Shown piece after piece: positions 2,716 through 22,081 of a stretch of 22,611 nucleotides of DNA. The stretch lies in the NCBI GenBank assembly GCA_048939015.1, contig JBHLPW010000070.1:1-22611 (forward strand). The letters are read 5' to 3'. The stretch is from Promethearchaeota archaeon. Its GTDB lineage: Archaea; Asgardarchaeota; Lokiarchaeia; Sigyniarchaeales; SOKP01. Within the stretch, counting starts at the first letter, position 1. Every line of letters starts with the position of its first letter. A program made the translations under genes and the position numbers. The notes below the pieces were generated by a model. The model did not search any database. It was not told the DNA's origin and saw only the letters and a program-made list of their open reading frames with translations.

Positions 2716-2795
2716 AATGAACCTAAATTATTAAAATTAAAAAAATAATTTCATTTTATTATTGTAATTTTCAAACTTGTTATATATAGAATATT

Positions 2796-3407
2796 ATGGC
2801 CAAAAAATCTCCAATATATATTGAAATTGCTAATAGAAAAGATGTTGAAGGAATTATAAATGTATTAAAACAAAATTTAATTGAAATAAGAGACATTGAA
2901 GAAATTTCAAAAGAAAAAAGAAAAAAGTTAGAACAAGAAGGTTTTTTGCGAAGAGAAGTCGATATTGAATACTATATCAAGCTTATTGATGATCCTAATG
3001 CAGACATTTATGTTGCAAAAAATGATAATGAAGAAATCATCGGATTTGCTAGCATACATAGAAAAAAATATGATATCCTAAAAGTGCGTGATGTTATTGG
3101 AGCTCTTTCTTTCGAAAATGAAAAAACTAAGAATTTACTTCTGAATGAAGATACAGAATTCACCTATTTGGATCAAATCAGCATTCTTCCAGAATATAAA
3201 CGATGGGGAGTAGGTACTGCTATTTTTCAAAAGTCTCTAAAAATAATAAATACTCCTATTGTTGCTTTTATTGTAGAAGAACCAATATTCAATAAAGCAT
3301 CATTTTATTGGCATATACGTAATGGCTTTGAATTCTCAGCTGTAAGTATCGGAGAATATAAAGGTAAAGTATTTAAATTCCAGATTTTTGTACATTGGAA
3401 TGATTAA
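2796..3407 (+). CDS. GNAT family N-acetyltransferase
   Basis: IIGFA strand, YLDQISILPEYKRWGVGT acetyl-CoA-binding motif A, N.AS..WH.RNGF motif B. Confidence 0.88.
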   Translation: MAKKSPIYIEIANRKDVEGIINVLKQNLIEIRDIEEISKEKRKKLEQEGFLRREVDIEYYIKLIDDPNADIYVAKNDNEEIIGFASIHRKKYDILKVRDVIGALSFENEKTKNLLLNEDTEFTYLDQISILPEYKRWGVGTAIFQKSLKIINTPIVAFIVEEPIFNKASFYWHIRNGFEFSAVSIGEYKGKVFKFQIFVHWND

Positions 3408-3422
3408 TTTAATAATATCATA

Positions 3423-3430
3423 TTTATATA
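3423..3430 (+). promoter_or_regulatory. Candidate TATA box for the CaCA antiporter gene
   Basis: TTTATATA about 45 bp upstream of ATG 3476. AT-rich background limits certainty. Confidence 0.3.
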
Positions 3431-3475
3431 AAGTTATTCTTTAAAGACATTTAAGCTTGGTAAAAACGATTCAGG

Positions 3476-4447
3476 ATGTTGCCAATTGTTATATTAATTA
3501 TTTTATTCATCATAGGTTTTCTAGTGATTTATTTTGCCGCAGATGTATTTTTAGATAATATAAAAGCATTGAGTATTCTTTACGGAATATCTCCTTTTGT
3601 TATTGGAGCATTACTCATTGGAATCGATCCAGAAGAATCAATTGCCTCAATCATAGCGGCTATTAATGGACTTTCTAAAGTCGCTATAGGAAATGTCATT
3701 GGGAATTCTATAATTGCATTAACGATAAGTTTTGCGATTCCTACTTTTTTCTATAGAATTGATTTTAAATCAATTCCTCAATTTTATTTTATATTATTAT
3801 ACCTTTGCCTTTTCTTAGTTATTCTCGAAATGGCACTTAATCTCGGATCGTTTTTTGGAATTCTAGCTATATTCATATATTTTCTATATTTGATTAGAAA
3901 TATAAAGAAATCTTTCAAAGAAACTTTTGATAAAGTAGATGTAAAAGAAAAGATCAGTAAGGAAGATTATCAAAAAATAAAAGAACTAGAAATAGATTCT
4001 AAATTCAAAAAAATTATTTTAATAATTGTTAGCTTTGTATGCCTATTTTTAGGGGGAGAACTTTTAATATATGCTTCTGAAAATATAATAATTCAGACCA
4101 ATATCCCCGAAACTTTCTTTGGCCTTGTTATAATCGCATTTATAACTAATGTTGAGGAATTAACATTAGTTATAAAATCAATAAAAAAGAAGTCTGTTGA
4201 AATAGGATTGGGAGGGATGATTGGAAAAGTTATATGGAATTTATCTCTTACTTTTGGAATTAGTTCTATTTTTATAACCACTCTCCAATTTTCATGGATA
4301 TTATTTTGGAGTTGGATCTTATTATCAATAATACTTGTGTATTTCAATTATTCTTCGAAAACACAAAAATTAGAGAAGCGAGATGGAATAATATTAATAT
4401 TACTTCTTCTATGTTTTCTAATAATTAATTTCACAATAGTAGTATAA
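3476..4447 (+). CDS. Cation:calcium antiporter (CaCA/YrbG-like) family protein
   Basis: Two 5-TM repeats joined by a charged loop. Alpha repeats GIDPEES..AIGNVIGNS and ITNVEEL..GLGGMIG; GISPFVIG and IPETFFG motifs. Confidence 0.85.
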   Translation: MLPIVILIILFIIGFLVIYFAADVFLDNIKALSILYGISPFVIGALLIGIDPEESIASIIAAINGLSKVAIGNVIGNSIIALTISFAIPTFFYRIDFKSIPQFYFILLYLCLFLVILEMALNLGSFFGILAIFIYFLYLIRNIKKSFKETFDKVDVKEKISKEDYQKIKELEIDSKFKKIILIIVSFVCLFLGGELLIYASENIIIQTNIPETFFGLVIIAFITNVEELTLVIKSIKKKSVEIGLGGMIGKVIWNLSLTFGISSIFITTLQFSWILFWSWILLSIILVYFNYSSKTQKLEKRDGIILILLLLCFLIINFTIVV

Positions 4448-4496
4448 TTTAAATTACAAAAAAATAGACAAAAAATTTATAAAAATCTTTTTAATT

Positions 4497-5198
4497 TTAT
4501 GGAGTTTCTTCCATTTCTGGTACTTCTTTAAGAGATTCAATGATATTTATAATATCTTCTGCTAGTTCATAACGTTCGGCTCTATATTTCTCACGATTCA
4601 ATCTTTTTTCGACACGTAAAGGCGATCCAACCTTTACTTTTACGCCATCTCCAGTAAACATGTTTAAAATTTTAGTTTTATAAGTTGAGATGGCTATTGG
4701 GATAATTGGAGCATCCCCTGCAATTGCGAATTTTATTATCGCAGCCATTGATTTCACCTGAACTTCCCGATCATGTTTAGCTTCCGGAGTCATACCTACG
4801 AGATCGCCTTTCTCGTTTAGTATCTCAAAAACTTTTTCTATAGGTTCAGTATCTTCTTTATTTTCAGTTCCTCTAATCATTCCAAGACTTTTTAGAATTG
4901 GGCCCATAATTTGATGCTTCATTAATTTCGGGTCAAGCATGAAATGAATTTTTCTTCCAGATACTTGAGCTATGATTAACATGTCTCTAATGATATTTGG
5001 GGTTATTGTTGTTAAAATCGCTTTTCCTCGAAAGGGAATATTATCTTGCCCTTCGATATGTAAATCCATGAAAGCTTTAAAGAATAAACCACTGAGCCCT
5101 TTTACGGCACCATAAAGCATATCAAAAGCTATCAACTTTGGATTTAATTTATCTCCTTCGTCCTTTATTTCCGGACTTGTACTTTCACTTTCACTCAT
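4497..5198 (-). CDS. PlsC/lysophospholipid acyltransferase-fold protein with degenerate catalytic motif
   Basis: IEGQDNIP..G.AIL, LKSLGMI, GDLVGMTPE, APIIPIAI, VKVKVGSPL. Motif I NHxSxxD is replaced by TITPNIIRD. Confidence 0.8.
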   Translation of the reverse strand: MSESESTSPEIKDEGDKLNPKLIAFDMLYGAVKGLSGLFFKAFMDLHIEGQDNIPFRGKAILTTITPNIIRDMLIIAQVSGRKIHFMLDPKLMKHQIMGPILKSLGMIRGTENKEDTEPIEKVFEILNEKGDLVGMTPEAKHDREVQVKSMAAIIKFAIAGDAPIIPIAISTYKTKILNMFTGDGVKVKVGSPLRVEKRLNREKYRAERYELAEDIINIIESLKEVPEMEETP

Positions 5199-5214
5199 AT
5201 TTTCTTACCTTTAA

Positions 5215-5409
5215 TTATAGTTTATCAATAAAATCATTAACTTCTTCCATTTTTTTTTCATAATACTCTTTCAAATCTTTTTCTGAAACAAAAGTAGGTA
5301 TTACTTTTTCAGTATAAAGATCGAAAATCGTACTTAACTTAGTTTTATGCTTAAGGGTTTCTAGGAATTCTTCTCCTAGTTCCATTAAATTTTTGAAAAA
5401 ATCTGACAT
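5215..5409 (-). CDS. Small acidic helical protein (64 aa) within the activase operon
   Basis: ATG 5409 is preceded by GGAGGTG inside the end of the upstream gene. Tightly packed (4 bp and 16 bp gaps). The track start at 5436 overlaps the activase. Confidence 0.7.
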   Translation of the reverse strand: MSDFFKNLMELGEEFLETLKHKTKLSTIFDLYTEKVIPTFVSEKDLKEYYEKKMEEVNDFIDKL

Positions 5410-5413
5410 ACGA

Positions 5414-6436
5414 TTAAAACACCTCCCATTTTCCACATCTACTTCCCCAACGAGCTATTACCTTGTTCTCGTCTTGAGGCATTTTAACTTGAACAATTTC
5501 ACAATTATTTGGACAATCTCCGCAATGAAATGTTGAGGTTTTGAATTCAATATCACTTACATCAAGACCTCTGAATACAGTTTCTGTTGGGTTGTCTAAA
5601 TAATAATCCCTTACAAGGATTGCCATTCCTAAAGCACCCATTAATACATTATATTTAGGTACTATTACTTCACAACCCAAGTGTCTTTCAAAAGCTTGAA
5701 TAATTCCTTTATTGTAGGAAACTCCGCCTTGAAATACTATTGGTTCGTTTAATTCCTTTCCTTTTGACAAATTATTCATATAATTCCTTACTAAAGAATC
5801 ACACAAACCAGCAATAATATCTTCTCTCGAATATCCCGCATTCTGTTTGTGAATCATATCCGATTCCGCAAATACTGTACATCTTCCTGCAATACTCACA
5901 GGATTTTTTGATCGTACAGCGTAATCTCCAAACTGTTCAATTGGAATTCCAAGTCTAGATGCTTGATGATCAAGAAAAGACCCAGTACCTGCAGCACATA
6001 CGGAATTCATAGCAAAGTCAACAATAATACCATCCCGCAAAATGATAATTTTAGAATCTTGTCCACCAATCTCTAAAATAGTACTAACGTCAGGATACAG
6101 AGATTGTGTAGCAACCGCATGTGCTATTATTTCTGTTTTCGCGAGATCTCCTCCAACAATTGCCTTTGTTAAATACCTTGCTGAGCCAGTAGTTCCACAA
6201 CAACGTATTTGATATTCTTGAAGTTGCTCACTTTGTTCAACTTTTTTTCTTAAGTCTTCCATACCTGCTTTAGCAGACTCAATAGGAGATCCGCGATTGC
6301 GTAAGAATACACTCGTAAGAACATTACCCTCTATATCCATTAAAACGAATTTACAGGTAACACTACCAATATCAATACCAAGAAAAGCATCAAGCTTTCC
6401 GTCTTCCTTTGCTACTTTATCAGATACTTGTACTAT
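5414..6436 (-). CDS. ATP-dependent acyl-CoA dehydratase/reductase activase (BadF/BadG/BcrA/BcrD family) with C-terminal Cys cluster
   Basis: The in-frame region upstream of ATG 6340 encodes FLGIDIGSVTCK (phosphate-1). Also TGSARY, EIIAHA, EIGGQDSK, CAAGTGSFL, GRCTVFAESD, FQGGV, CGDCPNNC..RC. Start inferred at ATA 6436, 6 nt after GGTGA. Confidence 0.88.
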   Translation of the reverse strand: MVQVSDKVAKEDGKLDAFLGIDIGSVTCKFVLMDIEGNVLTSVFLRNRGSPIESAKAGMEDLRKKVEQSEQLQEYQIRCCGTTGSARYLTKAIVGGDLAKTEIIAHAVATQSLYPDVSTILEIGGQDSKIIILRDGIIVDFAMNSVCAAGTGSFLDHQASRLGIPIEQFGDYAVRSKNPVSIAGRCTVFAESDMIHKQNAGYSREDIIAGLCDSLVRNYMNNLSKGKELNEPIVFQGGVSYNKGIIQAFERHLGCEVIVPKYNVLMGALGMAILVRDYYLDNPTETVFRGLDVSDIEFKTSTFHCGDCPNNCEIVQVKMPQDENKVIARWGSRCGKWEVF

Positions 6437-6451
6437 TTTTATTCACCATAC

Positions 6452-7642
6452 TTATGTTTGAATTAATTGAACACATTCTTGAAAAAAATGGGATCCATTA
6501 GAACTATAAAAATTATCTTTCTCAGCTTTAAGTGAGGTTCCTTCATTTTCTAATTTATATTTACGTCTTGATTCCATTAGATCAGCAAAAGCTTCTAATC
6601 TTGTTCTCATGCCTTCAGTTCCAGAATGTTCATCAAAGGAAAAATAAATAACAGGTAAATCGAATTGTTTCTTTAATTTATTTGTAATAATAGTTCGTGC
6701 CACAACCTCAGGCATGCAAGTGAATGGATATTCATGTACAAAACCATCGAATCTTGAATTTGCAGCATGAATATAACTTCCTATAACCCAAATTGCTTCC
6801 CCTCCAATATCCATAGGGATATAAGGTTTTGCCAAATGCTCCAACCATTTTCTATGGTAATTCAAATGAAATTTATGTACGACCCAATCATATAAACTTA
6901 GAAATTGGTGAACTTCTATGCCCATGTCCCCAAGTTTTCGTCGAATATCTACATTAACATAGGGCTCTAAACTTATATGAATTTCTCCGGTTAACATAAC
7001 TTTCAGGGGATTTCGTGTATTATCAACATCAATTTTATTAAAATCTTTCTTAATTACATCCTTAAAATTTCGTAATTCCTTAAGAGTATTAGCTTGGTCA
7101 AGCTTATTTAATACATTATTTAAAACATCAGTAGTGTCTCCTTGGTTTCGTTCATATGCACGGAATAAACCTTCAGCAGTTTGAATATCGTTTAATAACT
7201 TAGCTTTCTTTAAGAAAAAAATAATTGCTTTTACATATCTAGGATAATCGAAAAGGCTACTTTTACCACTAACTTCCTGAAGAGTCTTTACCCAATGAAA
7301 TTCAAGTAAATCTGCTTGATCTAATGGAATGACTCTCACATCTTTATACCCCATATCATGTAAAAGGCGTTCCTGAACTGCATGATAAAAACCAAAACGA
7401 CAAGGTCCACAATCTATAGCCATTACTAAAGTATCAGCACCTTTTTTAATAGCACTTGCAAAATCTCCTAATGTTGCTTTAAATGGAAAGCATACAAATT
7501 CGGGACTGTATTTTACTCCGATTTTAATGGCTTCTCGATTAGTTGGGTCAGGTAATACCACTTTGATTGAAGGATCTAACTGTTCAAAAAGTGTCTTGAA
7601 CGCTACCCAATTTGGACCCATGTTAGGAAATGAAAGAATCAT
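6452..7642 (-). CDS. 2-hydroxyacyl-CoA dehydratase/DUF2229-like Fe-S reductase subunit (PlsR/Ger reduction-domain-like)
   Basis: SFPNMG, SPEFVCFPFK, CGPCRFGFY, GEIH...EPYVN, PFTCMPE, FDEHSGTEGMRTRLEAF. GGAG RBS upstream. Confidence 0.85.
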   Translation of the reverse strand: MILSFPNMGPNWVAFKTLFEQLDPSIKVVLPDPTNREAIKIGVKYSPEFVCFPFKATLGDFASAIKKGADTLVMAIDCGPCRFGFYHAVQERLLHDMGYKDVRVIPLDQADLLEFHWVKTLQEVSGKSSLFDYPRYVKAIIFFLKKAKLLNDIQTAEGLFRAYERNQGDTTDVLNNVLNKLDQANTLKELRNFKDVIKKDFNKIDVDNTRNPLKVMLTGEIHISLEPYVNVDIRRKLGDMGIEVHQFLSLYDWVVHKFHLNYHRKWLEHLAKPYIPMDIGGEAIWVIGSYIHAANSRFDGFVHEYPFTCMPEVVARTIITNKLKKQFDLPVIYFSFDEHSGTEGMRTRLEAFADLMESRRKYKLENEGTSLKAEKDNFYSSNGSHFFQECVQLIQT

Positions 7643-7943: not shown

Positions 7944-8705
7944 ATGGTAAAGGATGTTTTAATTTATGAAATTAAAGATCAGATTGCCTATATTACTATA
8001 GACAATCCAGAAAATAATAGATTGGATCCTCTACTATGCAGAGCTTTGGGAGAAGCATGGAAGCGTTTTGCGGATGATCCAGAAAGTAGGGTGGCAATTC
8101 TCAGTGCTAAAGGTCCTGACTTTAGTCGTGGCGCAGATATTTATGTTAAAGGTTCGTTAAAAGATCTTCTTAAAGCTTTTCCTCCAAATGGTACTAAAAT
8201 CCTAAAACCAATCATCGGAGCGGTTCATGGAAATGTAATTGGTAGTGGATATGGACTTGGAGTTTTAAGCACAGATATAACCTATGCGACAGAAGATACC
8301 CAGTTTATCTTTGGTGAAGTCTTTGTTGGAATAGTTGGGACTATTATAGAATATAAACCTTATATGCCTTTCAAGGCTTCTATGGAATTTTACATGTCAG
8401 GGAAACCGATGAGTGCTAAACGGGCTTACGAATTAGGTCTAATCAATCATGTAACAAAAAATAAAGAAGAGCTTATGATAGAAGCTACTAAAATGGCTCA
8501 AATATTACGGGATAATGCACCATTATCCTTAAGAGCGATTAAATATGGTCATTACAAAATCATGGAGAGTGAAAGAAGAAAGGCAATACGTTTAGCACAG
8601 GAGGAATTTAATACTTTTATTCAACCTCAATTAGTTAGCGAAGACTTCAAGGAAGGAAAAGCAGCACTTAAGGAAAATAGAAAGCCTATATTTAAGGGTC
8701 GCTAA
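7944..8705 (+). CDS. Enoyl-CoA hydratase/isomerase (crotonase) family protein
   Basis: FSRGADI oxyanion loop, KPIIGAVHG.VIGSG, A.RAYELGLIN, APLSLRAIK, SEDFKEG..A..E.RKP.FKG. Confidence 0.92.
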   Translation: MVKDVLIYEIKDQIAYITIDNPENNRLDPLLCRALGEAWKRFADDPESRVAILSAKGPDFSRGADIYVKGSLKDLLKAFPPNGTKILKPIIGAVHGNVIGSGYGLGVLSTDITYATEDTQFIFGEVFVGIVGTIIEYKPYMPFKASMEFYMSGKPMSAKRAYELGLINHVTKNKEELMIEATKMAQILRDNAPLSLRAIKYGHYKIMESERRKAIRLAQEEFNTFIQPQLVSEDFKEGKAALKENRKPIFKGR

Positions 8706-9813: not shown

Positions 9814-9905
9814 GTTGAAATTTCATGGAATTTAAAAGGAAAAAAGTGAAATTAATCAACTATTCTAAAATTCAATTTCAAAATTTGAAAGGAGTTTAAT
9901 TAGAC

Positions 9906-10280
9906 ATGAGTAAAGTCGAACAAGTTACACAAATTTTACAAGATCTTGAAGAAAAAGTATCCGATATTATTGGTTCTGCAGTTATAAGAACTAATGGTCT
10001 TATAATCGCATCTGCTTTACCTAGTGAAGCGAATGAAAGGATGATCGCAGCAATGTCAGCGGCACTTTTAGGCACATCAAAAAGATCCGCAGAAGCTCTT
10101 TTTAATGGACTATTTCGAAGTCTTAACTTAGAACTAGATAAGGGAAATATGTTTCTTATCGGTGCAGGTCGTGTTATATTAGTAGCAATAACAAGAAAAG
10201 AACCGAATATTGGTTTGGTTACTCTAGAAATGGAAGACACAAGCAATAAAATAAAGGAAATTTTTGGTGCTGAGGAGTGA
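9906..10280 (+). CDS. Roadblock/LC7 (MglB/LAMTOR2-like) domain protein
   Basis: IIGSAVIRTNGLIIASALP, IAAMSAALLG.S.R, L.LE.DKG, ILVAIT..EPNIGLV.LEM: canonical roadblock pattern. Confidence 0.93.
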   Translation: MSKVEQVTQILQDLEEKVSDIIGSAVIRTNGLIIASALPSEANERMIAAMSAALLGTSKRSAEALFNGLFRSLNLELDKGNMFLIGAGRVILVAITRKEPNIGLVTLEMEDTSNKIKEIFGAEE

Positions 10281-10287
10281 GTAAAAT

Positions 10288-10758
10288 ATGAGTGAAAGAT
10301 TGAAAGAGAGATTAAAGCAGTTAAAATTCATTTCTTCTATGTTTAGTTTGGCGATGGATGAGTTCAATAATGTTATGGGACCAGAAACTATTCAAACCAT
10401 TTTTAGATTAATAGGAGAACGTCAAGGAGAAGCAGTAGAAAAAAGATTAAGAGAAAAAAATGATATTCAGAAATGGACTCCTGAATTATTTGCTGAAAAA
10501 CTTTCTAAAGATGTAATTGACGCGGCAGTAGGAACAGGAGCATCAGAAGTTGTTGTAAAAAATAATGAGATATCTGTAATAATTAAAGACTGTCCATTCA
10601 AACGAGCAGGCATCAAAATTACAAATAAATTTTACTGTACCTATACAGAAGGCTTGATAGAAACAATAGGAAAAAAAGCACTTGGCATAGAATCATTTGA
10701 AAGTCAAGAATTAAGAGCAGTCGCTAAATGTGACTGTAAATTTCTTCTTAAACTATAA
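10288..10758 (+). CDS. V4R / methanogen output domain (H-NOX/TRAPP Bet3-related fold) protein
   Basis: Helical IFRLIGERQGE, then IIKDCPF..FYCTYTEGLIE..CDCKF Cys pattern typical of V4R domains. Confidence 0.75.
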   Translation: MSERLKERLKQLKFISSMFSLAMDEFNNVMGPETIQTIFRLIGERQGEAVEKRLREKNDIQKWTPELFAEKLSKDVIDAAVGTGASEVVVKNNEISVIIKDCPFKRAGIKITNKFYCTYTEGLIETIGKKALGIESFESQELRAVAKCDCKFLLKL

Positions 10759-10821
10759 ATTTTTAAGATTTTAAGTATAAATTTTTATTATAACATTTTT
10801 TTTATTTTTTCAGTTACAAAA

Positions 10822-11550
10822 ATGATTCTTTCAATTCTAATTTTAAAAAGAACTGGAGAAAATTTATGTAGTAGAACATTTGGAACAACCAAATGGAGTG
10901 AAACGTTAACAAGTGGGTTTATTTCTGCTACTTTTAATTTTACTAAAAAAACATTTGGAACAGAATTAAACGAATTAGAATTAGGACCTTATCGATTGAT
11001 GTTTGAATTAACAGATGACCTTATCATTGTCGCTTTTTATGAAAAAAGCGATAGTATTATTAACATACGACAAAAATTGGGTGAATTAAAGGAGATTATT
11101 TACGACAAATATGAATCTGCGATAAAAAGTGATATTTGTGATCAAGAAAATTTTGCGGGTCTAAATGAGATTATAGATAAAATTATAGCAGAATCTTCTA
11201 AAATCGATATAAATGACGAATTAAAGAAAAAATATAAAGATGTTTTAGATAGTTTTCGATCAAATGTAGAAATTTTAGATTGTGATTTAATAACCAGTTC
11301 AGGAGTTCCATTAACAAAGGAATGGAATAAAGAATTTTTAGATCTCTGTTTACGAATTATAGATGCCTTTTGGAAATCAAAACAATACGTATTAGATCAA
11401 ATTATTCTTACTTATGAACAACGTAACCTAATTTTACATAAGATAAATAATAATTTTGTGCTTTCAGCACTAGTGAGAAGAAATACTCCTATTGGGTTGG
11501 CAACTTTTATGGTTGAAGAGACTTCAAATATAATTGCCAAAATTGAATAA
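10822..11550 (+). CDS. Longin-like N-terminal domain fused to a C-terminal roadblock domain
   Basis: N-half: MILSILILKRTGENL..SGFISA.FNF.K....ELNELELG..LIIVAFYEK.D (longin-like). C-half: DLITSSGVPL..QIILTYE..FVLSALVRRNTPIGL (roadblock). Confidence 0.72.
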   Translation: MILSILILKRTGENLCSRTFGTTKWSETLTSGFISATFNFTKKTFGTELNELELGPYRLMFELTDDLIIVAFYEKSDSIINIRQKLGELKEIIYDKYESAIKSDICDQENFAGLNEIIDKIIAESSKIDINDELKKKYKDVLDSFRSNVEILDCDLITSSGVPLTKEWNKEFLDLCLRIIDAFWKSKQYVLDQIILTYEQRNLILHKINNNFVLSALVRRNTPIGLATFMVEETSNIIAKIE

Positions 11551-11582
11551 AAGATATTTAAATACACTTTGAGATTAGTAGA

Positions 11583-12002
11583 ATGGGATTTTTATCTAAA
11601 ATTTTTGGAAAAAAGGAAGAGCATGATATTCAGGTTATTGAATCTGAGATGATAAAGTTAAAGAAGAAAATTAATGCAGAAATGATAGTTATTTTCGGAA
11701 TTGGAGGAAGATTGAAAGGGTTGCCTTTAATTTATGCTTCAGATGATGATAATGAAGTTAAACAATTTTCTGCTAGATTATATGAGGTGATTGTTCCTCT
11801 TGATAGAGTTTCAGTTGATAGAAACGTTAGGGACATTTTAATAAACTATAATGACTCAATTCTATTTTTTAAACAAATAATGGAAAATATTGGATATTTT
11901 GCAATATTTGGTAATAAAAATGATCTCTTAGGGGTTAAACAATGGATATATAAGAAAGAAGAGGTTCTGAAAAATCTTCTCCATGAAAAGAAATTATATT
12001 AA
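11583..12002 (+). CDS. Divergent roadblock/longin-like protein with N-terminal amphipathic helix
   Basis: MGFLSKIFGKK N-terminus. MIVIFG....GLPLIYAS, helix, VRDILINY..ILFFKQI..IGYFAIF, terminal helix fit the profilin-like alpha/beta order. Confidence 0.55.
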   Translation: MGFLSKIFGKKEEHDIQVIESEMIKLKKKINAEMIVIFGIGGRLKGLPLIYASDDDNEVKQFSARLYEVIVPLDRVSVDRNVRDILINYNDSILFFKQIMENIGYFAIFGNKNDLLGVKQWIYKKEEVLKNLLHEKKLY

Positions 12003-12044: not shown

Positions 12045-12395
12045 CTAGAAGAGTTTAACAATTAAAACGCCCACCATAATAACAATAAGTAAACTTAAGA
12101 TTATTATCAAAAGAATTGCCAAATTTTGTATTTGTAAAGCTGCTGAATATTTTGACAAAGCATCATAGTAGTTTTTTTCCCCTTCAATAATATCTTCTCC
12201 TAGTGCTCCTGTTACTTCCCAAAAAGTTATTTTTTCTGCCCATTGCCTATTTTCATTTATAATTTGCTTTTGTTCTTCTAGGATTGATTGTTGGTAATTA
12301 ATTTGAATTGAGCTTAAAATGATAAATATCCCTGAAATAATCATAATAAAAATTGTATAGCCCAATACAAGAGTTTTTTTTTTAATATCCTTCAA
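12045..12395 (-). CDS. Small two-TM membrane protein with a helical extracytoplasmic hairpin
   Basis: Two hydrophobic segments flanking a polar helical region of about 60 aa. Likely start TTG 12395 (LKDIKKK then TM); the track start 12485 runs through AT-rich DNA. Confidence 0.6.
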   Translation of the reverse strand: MKDIKKKTLVLGYTIFIMIISGIFIILSSIQINYQQSILEEQKQIINENRQWAEKITFWEVTGALGEDIIEGEKNYYDALSKYSAALQIQNLAILLIIILSLLIVIMVGVLIVKLF

Positions 12396-12650
12396 ATTAA
12401 TAACTCGTCTTTGAAAATTAATATGCTTTAAACTAACATTATAATAAGATCTTATATAATTTTTTTCAATTAATCTCCAAATCAAAAAAACCTAATAATT
12501 GAAGGTTAAAGATCAATATACCATTATTTTAAAAGAAATGATTTTTTCTATTGACAAATGTTTTTATTTAATTTAAATCACTAGATGTACTGTTGAGAGT
12601 TTAATACATTAATAAAAATGGAAATAGGAAAATAAAAATCTCAGCTACTT

Positions 12651-14165
12651 ATGACAGATAAAGAAAAAAAAAAGGGAAAAAAAGAAAAAAAAAAGAAGTC
12701 TGTAGTTCAAGTCGCGGAGATTAAATCTCAAGATAAACAGAAAGAAAATAATAAAGATATCTTTTCTAAGCTAGATAGGCTTGATGATATTGATAAAGCT
12801 AAAAGCCAAATAAAAGAAGAAAAATTAAGAAAGGGTATAATCTTAAGCGAACAATTAGAGAAAAAAGAAAAATACCCAGATAAAAAGTTGGATTTCAGTA
12901 AGATAAGAATAGAAATTGAGCAACTGAAAGAACTAAAAGATCTTTACATAACCAAAGGAGATTTTGATAAAGCTAGAGAAATCTCTGAAAAAATTATTGT
13001 GCTTGCATTCTCAAACAAATTAAAGTCAGTTATTGATGAAGAGAATAAAAATTTAGAACTTTTAAGAAAAAAAAGAAAAGAACTACCTCCAGAGAAAGAA
13101 AATCATGAAGAAAAAAATCACATAGAAATAAAACCTGAGAAAAAAGCAGAAAAATCCATTGAAGAAGAAAAATTAGAGAAAAAATCAGATTTATTATTAA
13201 TTATAGAAGAACCAGTGTTAAAAGAAGAGAAATTAAAAGCGGAAAAAATAGATTTGAGCGAGATTGAAATAGAAATAGGACAGTTAAATGAACGTAAAAA
13301 TCACTACTATGATAACGGATTATATGATAAAGCAATTGAAATATCAGAAAAAATAATTGTGTTAGCATTTTCTAACAAATTAAAGTCTATTGTCGATGAA
13401 GAGTATAGATTTGTAGAGCTCTTAAAAAATAAAAAACAAGAAGCAACTTTAGAGAAGAAAACCCTTAAAGAATCTAAAGAAGCGGATATTATCAATAAGG
13501 AGGAAATAGAAAAACCAATAAAGAAAGATTCAATTGATTTAATATTAGATTTAGATGCTATTAAAGAAAAACAAGCCTTAAAACAAGAAAAGATGAATCT
13601 TGAGAAAGAAAAAGAAACATTTGAACAAGAGAAACTAAAATACGAAGAAGAAAAAGAAGCCCTTAAATGGGAGAAACAAATGCTTGAAGAAATGAAAAAT
13701 CACGAGAGACATAAAGATGTTATTACTAAAGAAAATGCAGTTCAAGGAATAATTAAAACAACTGAGAGTGAAGAAATTGAGATGAATGAATCTGAAATAT
13801 ATTCTCTTAAACAGGAAAGAGAAAGGATACAGATAGAAAGAGAGAATGTTGAAAAGGAAAAATTGAAACTTGATGAAGAGAAGAAAGATTTTGAAAAATA
13901 CAAGTTAATGCTTAAAGATAAAAATGAAAGACTTGAGCAAGAAAAACAACAATTACAGATAGATAAAGAAAAGCTCAACCAAAAAAAAATCAAACTTAAA
14001 GAACAAAAAGATCTTTTTGAGGACAACTGGATTAAATTTCAAGATGATAAGGAAAAGTTAAAGAGAGAAAAACAGAAATTTGAAGAAGAAAGGGATACGT
14101 TTAGATGGGAAAAACAAATGTTTAATGAATTAAAAAAGCATGAACGAGAAAAAGAATCTCAATAG
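12651..14165 (+). CDS. E/K-rich coiled-coil protein with two internal repeat families
   Basis: 504 aa. Duplicated helical-hairpin module, long heptad region, duplicated WEKQM..E.K.HER motif. Confidence 0.8.
   Translation: MTDKEKKKGKKEKKKKSVVQVAEIKSQDKQKENNKDIFSKLDRLDDIDKAKSQIKEEKLRKGIILSEQLEKKEKYPDKKLDFSKIRIEIEQLKELKDLYITKGDFDKAREISEKIIVLAFSNKLKSVIDEENKNLELLRKKRKELPPEKENHEEKNHIEIKPEKKAEKSIEEEKLEKKSDLLLIIEEPVLKEEKLKAEKIDLSEIEIEIGQLNERKNHYYDNGLYDKAIEISEKIIVLAFSNKLKSIVDEEYRFVELLKNKKQEATLEKKTLKESKEADIINKEEIEKPIKKDSIDLILDLDAIKEKQALKQEKMNLEKEKETFEQEKLKYEEEKEALKWEKQMLEEMKNHERHKDVITKENAVQGIIKTTESEEIEMNESEIYSLKQERERIQIERENVEKEKLKLDEEKKDFEKYKLMLKDKNERLEQEKQQLQIDKEKLNQKKIKLKEQKDLFEDNWIKFQDDKEKLKREKQKFEEERDTFRWEKQMFNELKKHEREKESQ
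12891..13403 (+). repeat. Intragenic duplication of a 51-codon TPR/UVR-like helical hairpin (12891-13043 and 13251-13403)
   Basis: D.S.I.IEI.QL.E.K..Y...G..DKA.EISEKIIVLAFSNKLKS..DEE occurs twice, 360 nt apart. Confidence 0.9.
13629..14156 (+). repeat. Intragenic duplication of a 30-codon coiled-coil cap (13629-13718 and 14067-14156)
   Basis: EKLKYEEEKEALKWEKQMLEEMKNHERHKD versus EKQKFEEERDTFRWEKQMFNELKKHEREKE. Confidence 0.85.
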
Positions 14166-17726: not shown

Positions 17727-19130
17727 TTAATTTAATAATTCATTCTTCCTTTTACGGACTCTTATTGCTTGAATAGCAATGGTTTCAAGAAGTCTGCGTT
17801 GATTTGTAGATAACCAAGGCCCCTCACAGTCTATAGCAGCATAAGGAATATCACTTTTGTTAGCTAAAGGGCGAATTATAGCTTGTGAGTTCATAGCAGG
17901 TTGACAATTGAATGCTCCCATATTTATTAATCCATCGAACACACATGATTTAATTGCATGGATAAACCTTCCAGTTATTACTGGTGTTTCAGTCAAACTA
18001 TTTGATGTTACATACTTATTACCAGCTTCAATAAGATCAATATAATCTACATGAGGATCAAACATTAAGCCTGTCTTACTCATTATTTTTCTATATATAT
18101 TACATTGTGAAGCTAGAAATTCCATTTTATCCAATCCTCTTTTTGCTTTTACAGCATCATTTTTATATTGCTCTTCTACATTTGAAATGTCTAACGAAGC
18201 TTCTTCAAATTGCAGTCTAGGATTAAAAATGCTCTTTTTAAAACCGTATCGCATCACTGGTTCAGACAATAGCAAGTTTAATGATTCAACAAGATCGACA
18301 ACTTTAACAATTATTCCTTTTTCAAGAAAATATTCTTCTACGGGATAGTGATTAAATAATAAGTTTAAACCCCCAAAAATCAAGATTTTAGGAGTTTTTT
18401 CAACTTTAGCCTTCAATGGAATTGTAGACACCTCTCGTGCCCATCTGATTAGTCCAGTTCGTAAGGATTTTCTCCCTACTTTCACATTATTTATAAACTC
18501 ATCTGTGATCGCTTCAAATTGATCAATTGCTAAATATTTATCTTTGGCAACACATTGTAGTGCATTACGTGCTTCCACGAGATAATGACCGATAATAAAG
18601 TTTACCTGTTCAATTAAAATAATCTCTGGTTTTAATCCTAAGTATTTATTTTTATAACTAGGACCTATACAAAAAAATGCATCTTTTATGTTCTGTCGTT
18701 TTTTAAATAAGATATCCCAGAGAACGGGCCATGCTCCATTTTGGCAAGGACCATGCTGATTCAATGGATCACGATAAATTGTAATTTCATTTTTTTCCCG
18801 ATATTCATTAATATCTTTTAAAATCGATCCTGCAATTGCTAGACTGGGAACACATTCTCTACCAGAGCATACTTGTTTTGCGTATTTCAATATATTTTCA
18901 TCAGTCTCTTGACTTACTCTAATTTTTCTATTATGTTGATTGTATAAATTTATTACAAGACGTGCTCCATATGGATTTCGAGCTGCTGGTTCAACAAATA
19001 CAATCCTAGGATCATCATAATCCACTCTTTTGCCTTTACTATCTATAATATACTCATAATTTTTTGAAAACTTAATTTCTCCTACAAATTTCGATGATAA
19101 TTCTACATCACTCATAATTTTATGCTTCAC
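17727..19130 (-). CDS. Fe-S reductase/dehydratase partner subunit (PlsR-like)
   Basis: CSGRECVP, GPCQNGAW, ETPVITG, FDGLINMGAFNCQP, PYAAIDCEG..RLLET. GTG start overlaps the upstream TAG (TAGTG). Confidence 0.8.
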   Translation of the reverse strand: MKHKIMSDVELSSKFVGEIKFSKNYEYIIDSKGKRVDYDDPRIVFVEPAARNPYGARLVINLYNQHNRKIRVSQETDENILKYAKQVCSGRECVPSLAIAGSILKDINEYREKNEITIYRDPLNQHGPCQNGAWPVLWDILFKKRQNIKDAFFCIGPSYKNKYLGLKPEIILIEQVNFIIGHYLVEARNALQCVAKDKYLAIDQFEAITDEFINNVKVGRKSLRTGLIRWAREVSTIPLKAKVEKTPKILIFGGLNLLFNHYPVEEYFLEKGIIVKVVDLVESLNLLLSEPVMRYGFKKSIFNPRLQFEEASLDISNVEEQYKNDAVKAKRGLDKMEFLASQCNIYRKIMSKTGLMFDPHVDYIDLIEAGNKYVTSNSLTETPVITGRFIHAIKSCVFDGLINMGAFNCQPAMNSQAIIRPLANKSDIPYAAIDCEGPWLSTNQRRLLETIAIQAIRVRKRKNELLN

Positions 19131-22081
19131 TAAACTACAATTGATAATAATTCTACTTTTTTCATTCGACGTTCTTCGATAATATCAAGAAAGGCACCTA
19201 CTCTTGTTTCAAAACCCGCGTGGGCAGTATGAGAATCGATCTCAAGATAACAAAAAGTAAGTCCGGCAAGGTCATACCTAAATTTATGATACATTGTACC
19301 ATCAGGACCACAGGAAAAACAAGAAACAAGACAAATATATAGGTTGGGATAATTTTTCACATATTGTATTGCATTATCAATTTTTTGTGTATAACTCCAT
19401 ACATTTCTCTCATATATATGATCCCCTTTTGATAACATTTGTAACATATCAGCAGGTATTGCGTTATAACCTCTACTGACAATTTTTCGAGGGAGCGCAA
19501 TATTAATTTCTGGTGGATAGACAACATAAGGTCTACCTGCAATTATAACACTCGGTTCATTTAATAATTTCTTTAGTTTTTTTTTTCCTTCTTCTCTGTA
19601 TTTTTCCCAGAATTTATTGTTATGGTTTAATGCTTTCTGTCCTGCTTTAATTCCTTCTTCAAAACTCAACCCTATCTTTACTGCAATTCTGCCAAATTCA
19701 TTAAGGGTCATTTGTATCAAATGAAGAGAAGTTCCTATATGAGGTGATAATATCCTATCACTTACATGCTCAAATTGAGCTCGTATCACATCAGCAATAA
19801 TCGTGGTAGAAGGGCAAGTATAACCATGTAAAAATCCATCGGGAATTTCATATTCAATTTCTCGAGGGATAAAAATATAACTCACATCACGTTTTATTAG
19901 GTAATCCACTTCTCTGTGAACCAATTCACATGGATAACATATAGAAGCAAGAGCATTAATTGTATCTTTTTTGGATCCTTGAGAAATTTCTACATTGAAT
20001 CCAAGTTCATTGATAAATTTTACATATAAAGGGAACAATGTGTAAACTGTGAGTGCCATTGGAAGTCCAATTGTTCCTCGCGAATTTTCAATATTTCGAG
20101 CTCCAAATTCTTCAAACATCATTTTATTTCGGAATGCTACTAAATCTTGACCTTCTTTTATTTTAGTACTCTTTTGGCGTAATAATCTGTATTTTGAACA
20201 CACACCACCAAACGGGTAGATTTTTCCCCTTATATATATGTTTTGAATTTCACAATTATTCTCACACGACATGCATCTAAATGTTTTTCTTAGTTCAATT
20301 TCACCTGTTTCGAGTTTTGTTAAATCAAACTCTCGCTCAGAGATGATACCTTCCCTTAAAAGATCTCTTGCCATTAGTGCCGTTCCAATACACCCCATAA
20401 GTTCAGGGTGCGAAGGCACAATTACTCTTCGTTCCAAATGAGCCGCCATGGCTAGAGCAACCGATCTGTTTAAAGCAACTCCACCAAGAAATAGAATATT
20501 TTTTCCTACTTGACGAGGACCTATAATTCGAGAAATATAGTTTTCTGCAATTGAATAAACAAGTCCTGCAACAACATCTTCTCGTTTAGCACCTTGTTGA
20601 AGAGCATTTCTTAGGTCGGTATTGATGAACGCGGCACATCTTTCTCCAAATGCTATAGGAGCTAGACTTTTTATTGCAATATTACTAATTTCTTCTATTC
20701 CAATCCCCATATCAACTGAAGCAGATTCCTCAAGAAAACTTCCTGTCCCTGCCGAACAGCCCTCATTCATAGCATAATCAATTGGTACTCCTTGTAAAAA
20801 TGATATAAATTTCGAATCCTGACCCCCAATTTCAAAAACAGTGTCAACATTTGGGAGTTCCTCAACAGCTGCTCTAGCATGTGCTAATATCTCATTAAAA
20901 CTCCGACAATTATTTAAATATACTGAAACTATCTCTCTTGCTGATCCAGTCACTCCACATTGTATTACTTTAACAATTTTATTACTTAACTGATCTATTA
21001 GTCCCTTTATACACGATTTTGTTGCTAGGATAGGATTTCCCAATGTTCTTAAATAAACACTAGCACAAATTAAACCATCAGATACATTAAACAAGACAGC
21101 TTTCGTTGTAGTTGAGCCAGCGTCTATTCCGAGGATATAAGAGTCACCCTCAATAATTTTCTCCTGATTATTTTTAGTTACACGATAATCTAAAAGAGAT
21201 TCTGTGCCTTTAAGAGGTTTATGCCTCTTGAATTCAATTGTTGTATCCTTAAACCATTTTTTATTAGGTGTACACTCCTCCTGAATCTCTGATGCAAATA
21301 AAGAGGCTCCAAAAACAGCTAGATAAGGACTTTCTGGTAGAATTTTAATTTCAGATGAAGTTAGAAATTCTTGAAGGTGTTTAATAAATATTTTGTTTTG
21401 TGAAACGCCTCCAGAGACGACTATTAAACCTGTAGGCCACTGTGCTGAATCAATCATTTTGCTGACCTTACTCGCTAAATCATGGATTAATGTTTTTGCA
21501 ATATCCTCTGGTTGACATTCACCTTTATTTAGCTTATGAGTTGCATCGGATTTACAATGAACAGAACAACGAGTGGCTAACTGAGTATATTTACCATGCC
21601 GACTTGCCTCAATACCTTCTTCTATTGTCATTCCCATTCTTTGAAGTTGTTGAATTATGAACTCACCTGTTCCCGCAGCACACTTAGTAGTAGATATAAT
21701 ATTTTTTATTCTACCATTTTTCATAGGGTAAACACTAAAAGTTTCTCCACCTAGAGAGATTAAAATATCAGGTTTTAGATTGTAGTATGATAATGCTTTT
21801 TCTAAGCATTCCACTTCGGAAATATATGGTAAATTTAGAAAACTACTAGTAGCTTGACCCGTTATGACGATATTTGATTGACTATTTACACTATAGCGAT
21901 CAAATATTTTTTTTATCGTTTTTCTTGGAGAACCCTCATGTCGTACAACTTCACTTATTATTTGTCCACTTTCCGTTCTGCGGACCCATTTTACTGAAAC
22001 TGCGCCAATTTCTAAGCCTTCAAAATATTGAATTTCTTGTTGATTTATACCAGAAAGCGTCTCATTTAGCATTTTCTTCAC
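19130..22081 (-). CDS. Tandem activase-activase-DUF2229 protein (PlsA-like CoA-activase fusion)
   Basis: Activase 1: GLEIGAVSVK, GGET, KCAAGTGEF, RCSVHCKSD. Activase 2: GIDAGSTTTK, EIGGQDSK, CSAGTGSF, RCAAF. Cys linker CMSCENNC..GGVC. Reductase domain: GLPMAL, CYPCE, YTCP, GRPY, FSCGPD, EIDSHTAHAG..TRVGAF. Start GTG 22081 or ATG 22072. Confidence 0.9.
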   Translation of the reverse strand: MKKMLNETLSGINQQEIQYFEGLEIGAVSVKWVRRTESGQIISEVVRHEGSPRKTIKKIFDRYSVNSQSNIVITGQATSSFLNLPYISEVECLEKALSYYNLKPDILISLGGETFSVYPMKNGRIKNIISTTKCAAGTGEFIIQQLQRMGMTIEEGIEASRHGKYTQLATRCSVHCKSDATHKLNKGECQPEDIAKTLIHDLASKVSKMIDSAQWPTGLIVVSGGVSQNKIFIKHLQEFLTSSEIKILPESPYLAVFGASLFASEIQEECTPNKKWFKDTTIEFKRHKPLKGTESLLDYRVTKNNQEKIIEGDSYILGIDAGSTTTKAVLFNVSDGLICASVYLRTLGNPILATKSCIKGLIDQLSNKIVKVIQCGVTGSAREIVSVYLNNCRSFNEILAHARAAVEELPNVDTVFEIGGQDSKFISFLQGVPIDYAMNEGCSAGTGSFLEESASVDMGIGIEEISNIAIKSLAPIAFGERCAAFINTDLRNALQQGAKREDVVAGLVYSIAENYISRIIGPRQVGKNILFLGGVALNRSVALAMAAHLERRVIVPSHPELMGCIGTALMARDLLREGIISEREFDLTKLETGEIELRKTFRCMSCENNCEIQNIYIRGKIYPFGGVCSKYRLLRQKSTKIKEGQDLVAFRNKMMFEEFGARNIENSRGTIGLPMALTVYTLFPLYVKFINELGFNVEISQGSKKDTINALASICYPCELVHREVDYLIKRDVSYIFIPREIEYEIPDGFLHGYTCPSTTIIADVIRAQFEHVSDRILSPHIGTSLHLIQMTLNEFGRIAVKIGLSFEEGIKAGQKALNHNNKFWEKYREEGKKKLKKLLNEPSVIIAGRPYVVYPPEINIALPRKIVSRGYNAIPADMLQMLSKGDHIYERNVWSYTQKIDNAIQYVKNYPNLYICLVSCFSCGPDGTMYHKFRYDLAGLTFCYLEIDSHTAHAGFETRVGAFLDIIEERRMKKVELLSIVV

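Follow-up and report, generated by a model that had tools for sequence, protein, structure and literature searches.

Asgard genomes encode dozens of small GTPases, roadblock proteins and longins. Matching regulators to GTPases in Asgards is hard because the GTPase genes of MK-D1 generally lie outside operons with such regulators (PMC10933270), and operon analysis was named as an open question in an earlier review (PMC4917890). Contig JBHLPW010000070.1 of a Promethearchaeota archaeon (assembly GCA_048939015.1) carries four consecutive genes, here called p1 to p4, for a roadblock protein, a V4R-superfamily protein, a longin-roadblock protein and a divergent roadblock protein (Table 1). Throughout, the window is the whole contig (22,611 nucleotides, or 22.6 kb; C75 in our numbering) of an Asgard genome of 4.86 Mb with ~30% GC. 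A preliminary description of the sequence had proposed that the four genes encode a proto-Ragulator/TRAPP scaffold acting in trans on a small GTPase. Do the four genes form one system, which known proteins are their closest relatives, and would the system act on small GTPases? The answer we favor, with evenly divided confidence, is that the four genes are one conserved and portable cassette, whose proteins would form a small-GTPase platform acting in trans. All four open reading frames (ORFs), consecutive on the + strand, were confirmed at positions 9906-12002. A 116-aa ORF at 9896-10246 (- strand) overlaps p1 in antisense and was taken as spurious.

Table 1. Features of the four-gene cassette, in positions of the window.
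Feature	Position	Strand	Size	Assignment
p1	9906-10280	+	124 aa	Canonical roadblock/LC7 protein
p2	10288-10758	+	156 aa	Stand-alone MetOD1-family protein, V4R/H-NOB/ATC-hydrolase superfamily; start 7 bp past p1
p2-p3 spacer	10759-10821	none	63 bp	T-rich
p3, whole gene	10822-11550	+	242 aa	
p3, N-terminal longin domain	10822-11199	+	residues 1-126	Probable Fuz/Mon1/HPS1 LD1 (first longin domain) type
p3, C-terminal roadblock domain	11215-11550	+	residues 132-242 plus stop codon	
p4	11583-12002	+	139 aa	Divergent MglB-like roadblock, no Pfam hit
p4, N-terminal segment MGFLSKIFGKKEE	11583-11621	+		Short hydrophobic-basic helix, candidate membrane-binding element

Conservation and loss of the cassette

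The order and strand of p1-p2-p3-p4 are kept in 16 of 16 distinct related loci, 15 of them from species-representative genomes and one on a 444-kb contig found by exact-protein look-up. Other genes of the window do not recur at these loci, except for a few downstream genes in the two closest relatives. The arrangement is thus not due to chance, and the gene-order conservation in related Asgard genomes that the preliminary description had named as a check was found at every locus. Across loci, identity to the window is highest for p1, the most conserved cassette gene (67-90%, with a mean column identity of 78%), followed by p2 (50-77%), p3 (40-74%) and p4 (26-72%). The gaps within the gene pairs are short at orthologous loci, with -4 to 16 bp between p1 and p2 and 0 to 41 bp between p3 and p4, and some stop and start codons overlap. 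A GGAG-type ribosome-binding site lies upstream of p1.

The gene p4 has no paralogue, its sole BLAST match in the genome being p4 itself, and therefore serves as a clean marker for the cassette. A search with the p4 profile covered 121 genomes of the class and found the cassette in 30 of them, spread over 22 of 25 genera. Within genera the presence is patchy. The window's own genus has it in 4 of 36 genomes, and among high-quality genomes the count is 7 of 40. All these counts are minimum values, as one same-genus genome scored as negative holds a cassette cut by a contig end. In a library of 1.8 billion proteins, p4 is represented by 35 clusters, and roughly 100 contigs bear the cassette. Homologues of the cassette genes in public records carry the labels Promethearchaeota, Lokiarchaeota or Helarchaeota. 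In a phylum-wide sample, every p3 orthologue in a genome covered by both searches has p4 directly beside it. Outside the class, the p3 profile matches only paralogues or the longin domain alone in other architectures.

Losses are recorded in the sequences themselves. In a same-genus genome (L026, G207:C5:37500-44500), positions 3693-3995 hold a deletion scar with one in-frame stop, where residues 1-47 of p1 run straight into residues 79-136 of p4. The scar joins the start of p1 to the end of p4, and everything in between (the remainder of p1, all of p2 and p3, and the first part of p4) was therefore excised as a block. Some other cassette copies also carry stops and are pseudogenised. A variant cassette (L028, G339:C96:1-8000, positions 2410-5222) consists of p1, p2 and a p4-like gene with 42% identity, and p3 is not detectable there. 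Beyond that gene lie ~1.1 kb without assignment and then another p4-like copy, which is interrupted by an in-frame stop. Because of this distribution, the adjacency, the losses and the genome-like composition, we regard the cassette as old within Loki/Hel-type Asgards, self-contained and dispensable.

The absence of the cassette from most same-genus genomes raised the suspicion that the contig had been mis-binned. This was rejected, since the GC content (0.302) is close to that of the genome (0.299) and the tetranucleotide distance lies at the median. Other same-genus genomes carrying the cassette or its remains are further evidence against mis-binning. The only runs listed as containing the locus are four sediment-metagenome DNA runs, all of one study, with no RNA run among them.

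The link between p2 and p3 is looser than those within the pairs, with spacers of 18-80 bp among orthologues. The preliminary description had cautioned that the 63-bp T-rich gap of the window could split the cassette into two transcription units. The caution is fair and the spacer is real, with runs of T5-T8 and a TATA-like box ~34-46 nt before the p3 ATG, and from its sequence it may serve as a partial terminator and/or an internal promoter. A scan with bacterial promoter and terminator models yielded 24 promoter-like sites against 20.4 expected, and such models are uninformative for an archaeon.

The cassette might be read as two independent two-gene modules that travel together, a roadblock/V4R sensor pair (p1 and p2) and a p3-p4 pair, each transcribed separately and with separate partners. 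Of 14 orthologous p2-p3 spacers, 9 contain T runs of 5 or more, often with TATA-like boxes 25-35 nt before the p3 start. The junction also tolerates insertions. In one locus (L010:4377-5846, +), an insertion sequence encoding a 489-aa DDE_Tnp_1 transposase sits exactly between the pairs, and in another (L012) ~2 kb with only short ORFs is inserted there. Hel-type genomes carry a second p1-p2 pair adjoining the cassette, so that this pair alone was duplicated, and the variant cassette without detectable p3 fits the same reading. Yet the pairs are adjacent and in the same order at all 16 loci despite unrelated flanks, and the 18-bp spacers, which have no T run or TATA-like box, imply co-transcription. 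The deletion scar, spanning p1 to p4, is consistent with loss as one unit. In addition, V4R domains are fused both to p4/p1-like roadblocks and to p3-type longins (see below), which crosses the proposed module boundary. We consider two independent modules unlikely. The bare spacers in some loci and the T-rich, TATA-like ones elsewhere suggest instead that co-transcription is likely in some genomes and optional in others.

Folds and relatives of the four proteins

The folds named in the preliminary description, a roadblock, a V4R-superfamily protein, a longin-roadblock protein and a divergent roadblock with a hydrophobic-basic N-terminus, all hold, whether by Pfam, by family profiles or by AlphaFold2 (AF2) models compared by Foldseek. 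The protein p1 matches Robl_LC7 (PF03259) at an expectation value (E) of 3.4e-10, with 40 bits against the 23-bit Pfam cut-off. Its sequence matches in the PDB are the Asgard roadblocks 9jue (8e-13), 7f8m and 7yh1, as well as CvnB5 of Streptomyces (3leq), and comparison with MglB and Asgard stand-alone roadblocks gave E of 1e-11 to 1e-13. For p4, the Pfam scan gave no hit, and neither p4 nor p3 reaches the PF03259 cut-off. The AF2 model of p4, with a predicted local distance difference test (pLDDT) score of 90.4, shows the full abbabbba roadblock topology. Foldseek matched this model to MglB (6izw_C) at 2e-7, with template modelling (TM) scores of 0.70/0.77, as well as to 9jue (MK-D1 Roadblock3), Rag C-terminal domains and LAMTOR subunits.

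The N-terminal segment of p4 is modelled as a separate short helix at lower confidence. Among 16 orthologues, 12 begin with the pattern M-G-h-h-S/T-K/R-h...F-x-K-K and three others with MEIF. The hydrophobic moment of the segment is moderate (0.2-0.36), and a role of the helix as a membrane-binding element is plausible from the sequence pattern. Relative to the usual N-myristoylation spacing, M-G-x-x-x-S/T, the Ser of p4 is shifted by one position. A search of the genome for the N-myristoyltransferase family, with modification of p4 Gly2 in mind, gave no match, but the control was equally silent and the search says nothing. The motif was also considered as a targeting signal shared among proteins, and this was rejected since p4 is the only true N-terminus in the genome that bears it.

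The protein p2 had been described as V4R-fold and related to Bet3. The first part is correct at the superfamily level, while membership in the Bet3 family does not hold. The window's own p2 gave weak ATC_hydrolase and MetOD1 matches only (MetOD1 at 14.3 bits, below the Pfam cut-off), and sequence and profile searches of solved structures returned only chance-level matches to aldose reductases. Across the p2 family, MetOD1 (PF18546) is matched by 44 of 44 members (best 1.5e-11) and ATC_hydrolase by 28. MetOD1 has been likened to HNOB, V4R and ATC-hydrolase domains, with a three-Cys cluster that it has in common with V4R and ATC hydrolase (PMC5847659). Three Cys (C102, C117 and C150) are invariant in the p2 family. 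An Asgard V4R profile, built from genuine V4R proteins of same-class genomes, aligned with the p2 profile across the Cys-bearing C-terminal half (hhalign probability 88.8%, E 2.5e-6). The alignment succeeded only with the family profile, and against one single V4R protein it was collinear and not significant (E 0.076). No longer fused homologues of p2 were found in a search that we rate as weak evidence.

These results bear on the possibility that the cassette belongs to the TRAPP core and/or Ragulator or is their direct evolutionary precursor, with p2 as a Bet3 homologue, p3 as a TRAPP longin and p4 as a LAMTOR-like anchored subunit. In the literature, V4R counts as the relative of the Bet3 fold in prokaryotes (PMC2253512; PMC10933270). 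However, none of the 44 p2 family members matches the Bet3/TRAPP Pfam model (PF04051) at E up to 1. The Asgard V4R profile finds the V4R structure MJ1460 (4e-15), H-NOX and MopR in the PDB, and no Bet3 at E up to 0.01. A genome search with the TRAPP Pfam model gave no match, with an equally silent control, and is not used as evidence. By sequence, p2 is best placed as a MetOD1/V4R-superfamily protein and not as a Bet3 protein.

Two other sets of V4R-superfamily genes were observed. In the window's genome, at G000:C21:89091-92351 (L023:4092-7352), three tandem Ras-family GTPase genes are immediately preceded by genes for a 147-aa MetOD1/ATC_hydrolase-like paralogue and a DUF364/DUF4213 'heavy-metal chelation' protein. 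Same-class genomes also carry tandem V4R-V4R proteins of ~300 aa and 526-620-aa proteins with two V4R domains (L061 = G301:C49; L035 = G240:C107).

The AF2 model of p3 (pLDDT 84.6, predicted TM score 0.70) has an N-terminal longin domain (bbabbba) and a C-terminal roadblock domain (abbabbba). The chain has these two domains and no third longin or roadblock domain, and family members are 241-259 aa long. The p3 profile matches 9jue_D, MK-D1 Roadblock3, at E 1.3e-6 over residues 133-242, and weak matches to PF03259 occur in 4 of 45 relatives. In VIA structural alignments, the C-terminal domain (132-242) reaches Z 14-15 to 9jue, MglB and LAMTOR2. The longin domain reaches Z of about 15, tied among TRAPPC4 (synbindin; 15.5), VAMP7, Sec22b and adaptor small chains. 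Because of this tie, the TRAPPC4 match appears generic to longins.

More specific relatives emerged from searches with the whole chain and with the family. Foldseek with p3 placed Mon1, Ccz1, Fuzzy, Inturned and BLOC-3 (HPS1/HPS4) on top (7e-9 to 1e-6), covering both domains, with single roadblocks lower. The sole rigid superposition over both domains was with Fuzzy (217-222 residues, root mean square deviation 4.6-4.9 A, VIA Z 15.3-15.4). A shape search of the ESM Atlas found a eukaryotic cluster with Fuz_longin_1/2/3 (PF19036/37/38) over 224 residues at TM 0.68. Against Pfam, Fuz_longin_1 is matched by 12 of 45 members of the p3 family (best 8e-8) and Intu_longin_1 by 5 of 45. Sybindin and sedlin models are not among the Pfam families matched by these members, and the window's own p3 gave no hit to PF19036 or PF19031. 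From the Pfam matches of family members and the Fuzzy superposition, the closest eukaryotic relatives of p3 appear to be the Fuz/Mon1/HPS1 subunits of tri-longin Rab guanine nucleotide exchange factors (GEFs). With two domains and no adjoining paralogous partner gene, p3 is not a member proper of the tri-longin family.

Partners of p3 might nevertheless be encoded elsewhere. Single-domain Fuz_longin_1 proteins exist and are possible partners in trans. The genome also holds full-length p3 paralogues on C40 and C56, which have unrelated neighbors. These paralogues were considered as tandem heterodimers with their ~255-aa neighbors and rejected, as the neighbors are an NGN/Spt5-like protein and a nitroreductase. 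Other Asgard families encode 693-696-aa proteins (L054:344-2425, L055:915-3005) in which ~560 aa without a Pfam family come after an N-terminal p3-type longin (profile E about 1e-21).

A Gly-Pro motif just before longin strand b2 marks the FLCN/SMCR8/NPRL2 type of GTPase-activating protein (GAP) longins (PMC12290439). The motif is not found in p3, which instead has an invariant Gly12 and a nearly invariant Glu13 in the b1-b2 loop. Because the GAP-longin motif is absent and p3 is kin to Mon1 and Fuzzy, exchange or scaffolding is favored over GAP action.

Kinship to TRAPP or Ragulator, as proposed at the outset, is thus not borne out. Structural alignments of p4 and the p3 C-terminal domain to LAMTOR2 and MP1/p14, the TRAPPC4 match, and fusions of longin with V4R that echo the Bet3-longin contacts of TRAPP would all fit such kinship. 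Against it stand the missing Bet3 matches, the apparently generic nature of the TRAPPC4 match, the sequence models that group the p3 longin with LD1 of Fuz/Mon1/HPS1, and the lack of a LAMTOR1-like wrap-around anchor protein in the cassette. We judge direct ancestry or membership highly improbable, and the proto-TRAPP/Ragulator label is best taken as a fold analogy only.

Fusions, GTPases and a proposed platform

V4R-bearing genes of the same class were screened with the cassette profiles. Three genomes, from two families, encode proteins of 295-303 aa with a V4R domain followed by a roadblock domain. The roadblock portion matches the p4, p1 and p3 C-terminal profiles (up to 1e-8), and Pfam scores the proteins at 51.9 bits for V4R and at E 5e-4 for Robl_LC7. 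In two genomes, proteins of 283-286 aa join a p3-type longin to a following V4R domain (longin profile 1.6e-9 to 3.7e-9, Pfam V4R 36.1 bits). One more V4R gene is followed after 60 bp by a gene starting with a p3-type longin. The V4R ORFs of L037 and L029 were rejected as longin-V4R fusions, as no longin signal was found. One Heimdall TRAPPC3-longin fusion was already known (PMC10933270).

Other fusions tie the p3-type longin to small GTPases. In the window's genome, G000:C34:9071-9940 (- strand; L022:4072-4941) encodes a 289-aa protein with a p3-type longin (1-132) and a Roc/Arf/Ras GTPase domain (128-261), matched at 1e-13 to 1e-15. An Asgard genome of another family, a 1.4-Mb single contig (L053), carries a longin-GTPase fusion with Fuz_longin_1 above the Pfam cut-off and an Arf/Roc/Ras domain, and an Atlas cluster comprises 376 archaeal longin-small GTPase fusion proteins. 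Asgard fusions of longins to Arf-like or Rag-like GTPases were already known (PMC4917890; preprint 10.1101/2020.10.19.343400; PMC10933270). At G000:C99:13552-15308 (L024:2553-4309), an Arf-family GTPase gene (332 aa, with a ~150-aa N-terminal extension) precedes, by 165 bp, the gene of the only Pfam-V4R protein in the genome (197 aa). V4R-roadblock, longin-V4R and longin-GTPase fusions in relatives thus back the proposal of one system made up of V4R, longin and roadblock parts. As sequence evidence, the fusions support a single GTPase-linked system.

No GTPase is encoded beside the four genes in the window. A small-GTPase Pfam domain was found in no window ORF, and 0 of the genome's 94 Ras-family matches fall on this contig, in agreement with the preliminary description. 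The genome also gave 17 roadblock matches.

The p3-type longin has further partners. In the window's genome, G000:C105:35355-36080 (- strand; L025:4356-5081) encodes a protein of 241 aa whose N-terminus is a p3-like longin and whose C-terminus is a winged helix of the TrmB/MarR type, and longin-helix-turn-helix clusters from Thor- and Loki-type archaea are present in the Atlas. Such fusions to winged-helix DNA-binding domains make a role unrelated to GTPases possible. The cassette might then encode a ligand- or redox-responsive signalling adaptor that feeds, for example, a transcription factor or a two-component pathway, with roadblock and longin domains as generic protein-protein modules. In archaeal response regulators, MetOD1 was defined as an output domain, and V4R senses phenolics in sigma-54 activators (PMC5847659). 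The lack of a GTPase beside the cassette in 15 of 16 loci also fits an adaptor. However, the p3-type longin is repeatedly fused to Arf/Roc/Ras domains, and all relatives with these folds in combination that have been characterised (MglB, Ragulator, TRAPP, Mon1-Ccz1 and Fuzzy-Inturned) act on small GTPases. The cassette itself has no DNA-binding or REC domain in a Pfam scan. An adaptor working apart from small GTPases seems distinctly unlikely to us.

We therefore return to the small-GTPase platform acting in trans and outline how it might work. Four domains of the longin/roadblock superfamily, supplied by p1, p3 and p4, would most likely pair edge to edge through their beta-sheets. The result would be a heteromeric platform like those with which MglB, Ragulator, TRAPP and Mon1-Ccz1 bind small GTPases. 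The three-Cys protein p2 is likely a ligand-, metal- or redox-sensing subunit, which would be coupled to p1. The hydrophobic-basic helix at the p4 N-terminus may bring the assembly to a membrane. The platform would then act in trans on at least one small GTPase, of which the genome has roughly 90, and might serve there as exchange factor, GAP co-factor or recruitment scaffold. That the four proteins work in one system appears probable. Whether that system regulates or scaffolds small GTPases is a balanced question, with as much speaking for it as against it in our estimate. Exchange-factor activity specifically is conceivable yet doubtful. The eukaryotic relatives of p3 (Mon1/Ccz1, Fuzzy/Inturned and HPS1/HPS4) support the platform reading because they are GTPase regulators.

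Several observations weigh against a small-GTPase platform. Assembly of the four proteins, membrane binding, the GTPase target and the direction of regulation are inferred from what the analysis shows, namely the folds, the family placement, the kept gene order, the loss as a unit and the domain fusions in relatives. All structures are predictions. The window's own p2 and p3 fall below Pfam cut-offs and are assigned to families by way of their relatives. Only 1 of the 16 loci has a GTPase gene within 6 kb of the cassette, and the loci point to no target. The fused V4R domains are of the PF02830 type and not close MetOD1 orthologues, and the p2 profile matches them only at about 1e-5 to 3e-4. 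The winged-helix fusions count on the same side, as do the dispensability of the cassette, with its low frequency in the class and in the window's own genus, and its pseudogenised copies. A complex prediction with the four chains as alignments and p2 as the scored partner gave a score of 0.00 (mark 0.32), which is evidence neither way on binding.

A bolder form of the proposal takes the cassette as a minimal, split prokaryotic counterpart of the tri-longin Rab GEFs. Here p3, as the equivalent of LD1-LD2 (the first two longin domains), would join p1 and p4 in a pseudo-symmetric platform. Recruited by the N-terminal helix of p4 and gated by p2 as the sensor of a ligand, a metal or the redox state, the platform would catalyze exchange on an Asgard Arf/Rab-like GTPase at a membrane. 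We hold this to be improbable in its entirety. If true, the cassette would resemble the ancestral state, and Mon1-Ccz1, Fuzzy-Inturned and BLOC-3 would have arisen from it by fusion and duplication. The coupling of V4R and longin, as in TRAPP, would then be an archaeal invention.

The genes around the cassette in the window encode CoA-ester enzymes, a beta-helix protein, a coiled-coil protein, a UbiA prenyltransferase, a peptidase and TrmO, none with a GTPase domain. The contig outside the cassette is given to CoA-ester metabolism. Two gene sets on the - strand (5414-7642 and 17727-22081) combine a BadF/BcrAD-type ATPase with DUF2229/HGD-D, resembling activases of 2-hydroxyacyl-CoA dehydratases, and an enoyl-CoA hydratase gene lies at 7944-8705. 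Converging on p4 is a 146-aa ORF (12045-12485, -) with two hydrophobic stretches, no Pfam family and no homologue at other cassette loci. Further downstream, a 504-aa Lys/Glu-rich protein (12651-14165, +) is probably a coiled coil, has no Pfam family and is not kept beside other cassettes. It contains internal duplicated blocks, 'EISEKIIVLAFSNKLKS..DEE' twice and 'WEKQM..E.K.HER' twice.

Significance and comparison with known systems

The folds themselves are known Asgard 'eukaryotic signature' parts. New findings are the fusions of V4R with roadblock and longin domains, the V4R profile test of p2, the distribution figures, the deletion scar and the negative test for the GAP motif. We found no published description in the literature of the operon or of the kinship between the Asgard longin-roadblock protein and Mon1/Fuzzy/HPS1. 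The cassette offers a defined set of four small, well-folding proteins that are kept, duplicated and deleted together, with fusions that join its members and link them to GTPases. The set should therefore be easy to reconstitute in vitro. Should the four proteins assemble and prove to act on a GTPase, the complex would be the first archaeal longin/roadblock platform of known subunit composition. It would also provide the origin of the Mon1/Fuzzy/HPS1 family of exchange factors with an anchor in archaea, and supply a functional precedent for a V4R-type sensor on longin/roadblock scaffolds, as in TRAPP with Bet3. The reach of such a finding is limited by the dispensability of the cassette, by its confinement to Loki/Hel-type lineages in the genomes searched and by the conjectural nature of its function.

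Among known systems, the tri-longin Rab GEF subunits (Fuzzy, Mon1 and HPS1, with their partners Inturned, Ccz1 and HPS4) come closest to p3, since their LD1-LD2 resemble its longin followed by a roadblock-type domain. They differ in having three domains rather than two and about 400-600 aa against 242 aa, and in having exchange activity, for which p3 is a candidate. The cassette has one longin-bearing gene and no paralogous heterodimer pair, with p1 and p4 where further domains would be, and it adds a V4R-type protein. With MglB, the GAP of MglA, and the Asgard roadblocks (MK-D1 RB, Roadblock3 and Thor-RB), the proteins p1, p4 and the C-terminal domain of p3 share the abbabbba fold with a C-terminal helix (TM 0.7-0.8, Z 14-15). 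In contrast to the MglA/MglB pair, the cassette has no adjacent MglA-type GTPase and carries three different roadblock-type domains instead of one homodimer. The extra N-terminal hydrophobic-basic helix of p4 is a further difference from MglB.

Ragulator (LAMTOR1-5) with the Rag C-terminal domains likewise combines several roadblock domains with a membrane-anchoring N-terminal MG element, and p4 and the p3 C-terminal domain align to LAMTOR2/MP1/p14 and to Rag C-terminal domains. Unlike in Ragulator, the cassette has no gene for a LAMTOR1-like extended anchor, and the MG motif is on a roadblock protein (p4) itself, without support for lipidation. One of the cassette domains is a longin, no Rag pair is encoded in cis, and no LAMTOR match is found at the sequence level.

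The superfamily that includes MJ1460, the sensor domains of PoxR/MopR and the archaeal REC-MetOD1 regulators (MetOD1/V4R/H-NOB) shares with p2 the family hidden Markov model, the size and the three-Cys cluster. In contrast to these proteins, p2 is stand-alone, without REC or AAA+ domains, and lies in an operon with roadblock and longin proteins. A conserved Asgard operon of a LAMTOR1-like roadblock, a Rab-like GTPase and a DENN protein was published as a proposed GEF module (Liu et al., preprint 10.1101/2020.10.19.343400). It is likewise a conserved cluster of GTPase-regulator folds of the roadblock superfamily, whereas the cassette has no GTPase or DENN protein and carries V4R-type and longin-roadblock proteins instead. 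The TRAPP core finally follows the same principle as the cassette, a V4R-related fold together with longins, with p2 being of the MetOD1/V4R rather than the Bet3 type and the p3 longin apparently of the Fuz/Mon1 type by sequence. In relatives of the cassette, V4R and longin domains are even fused.

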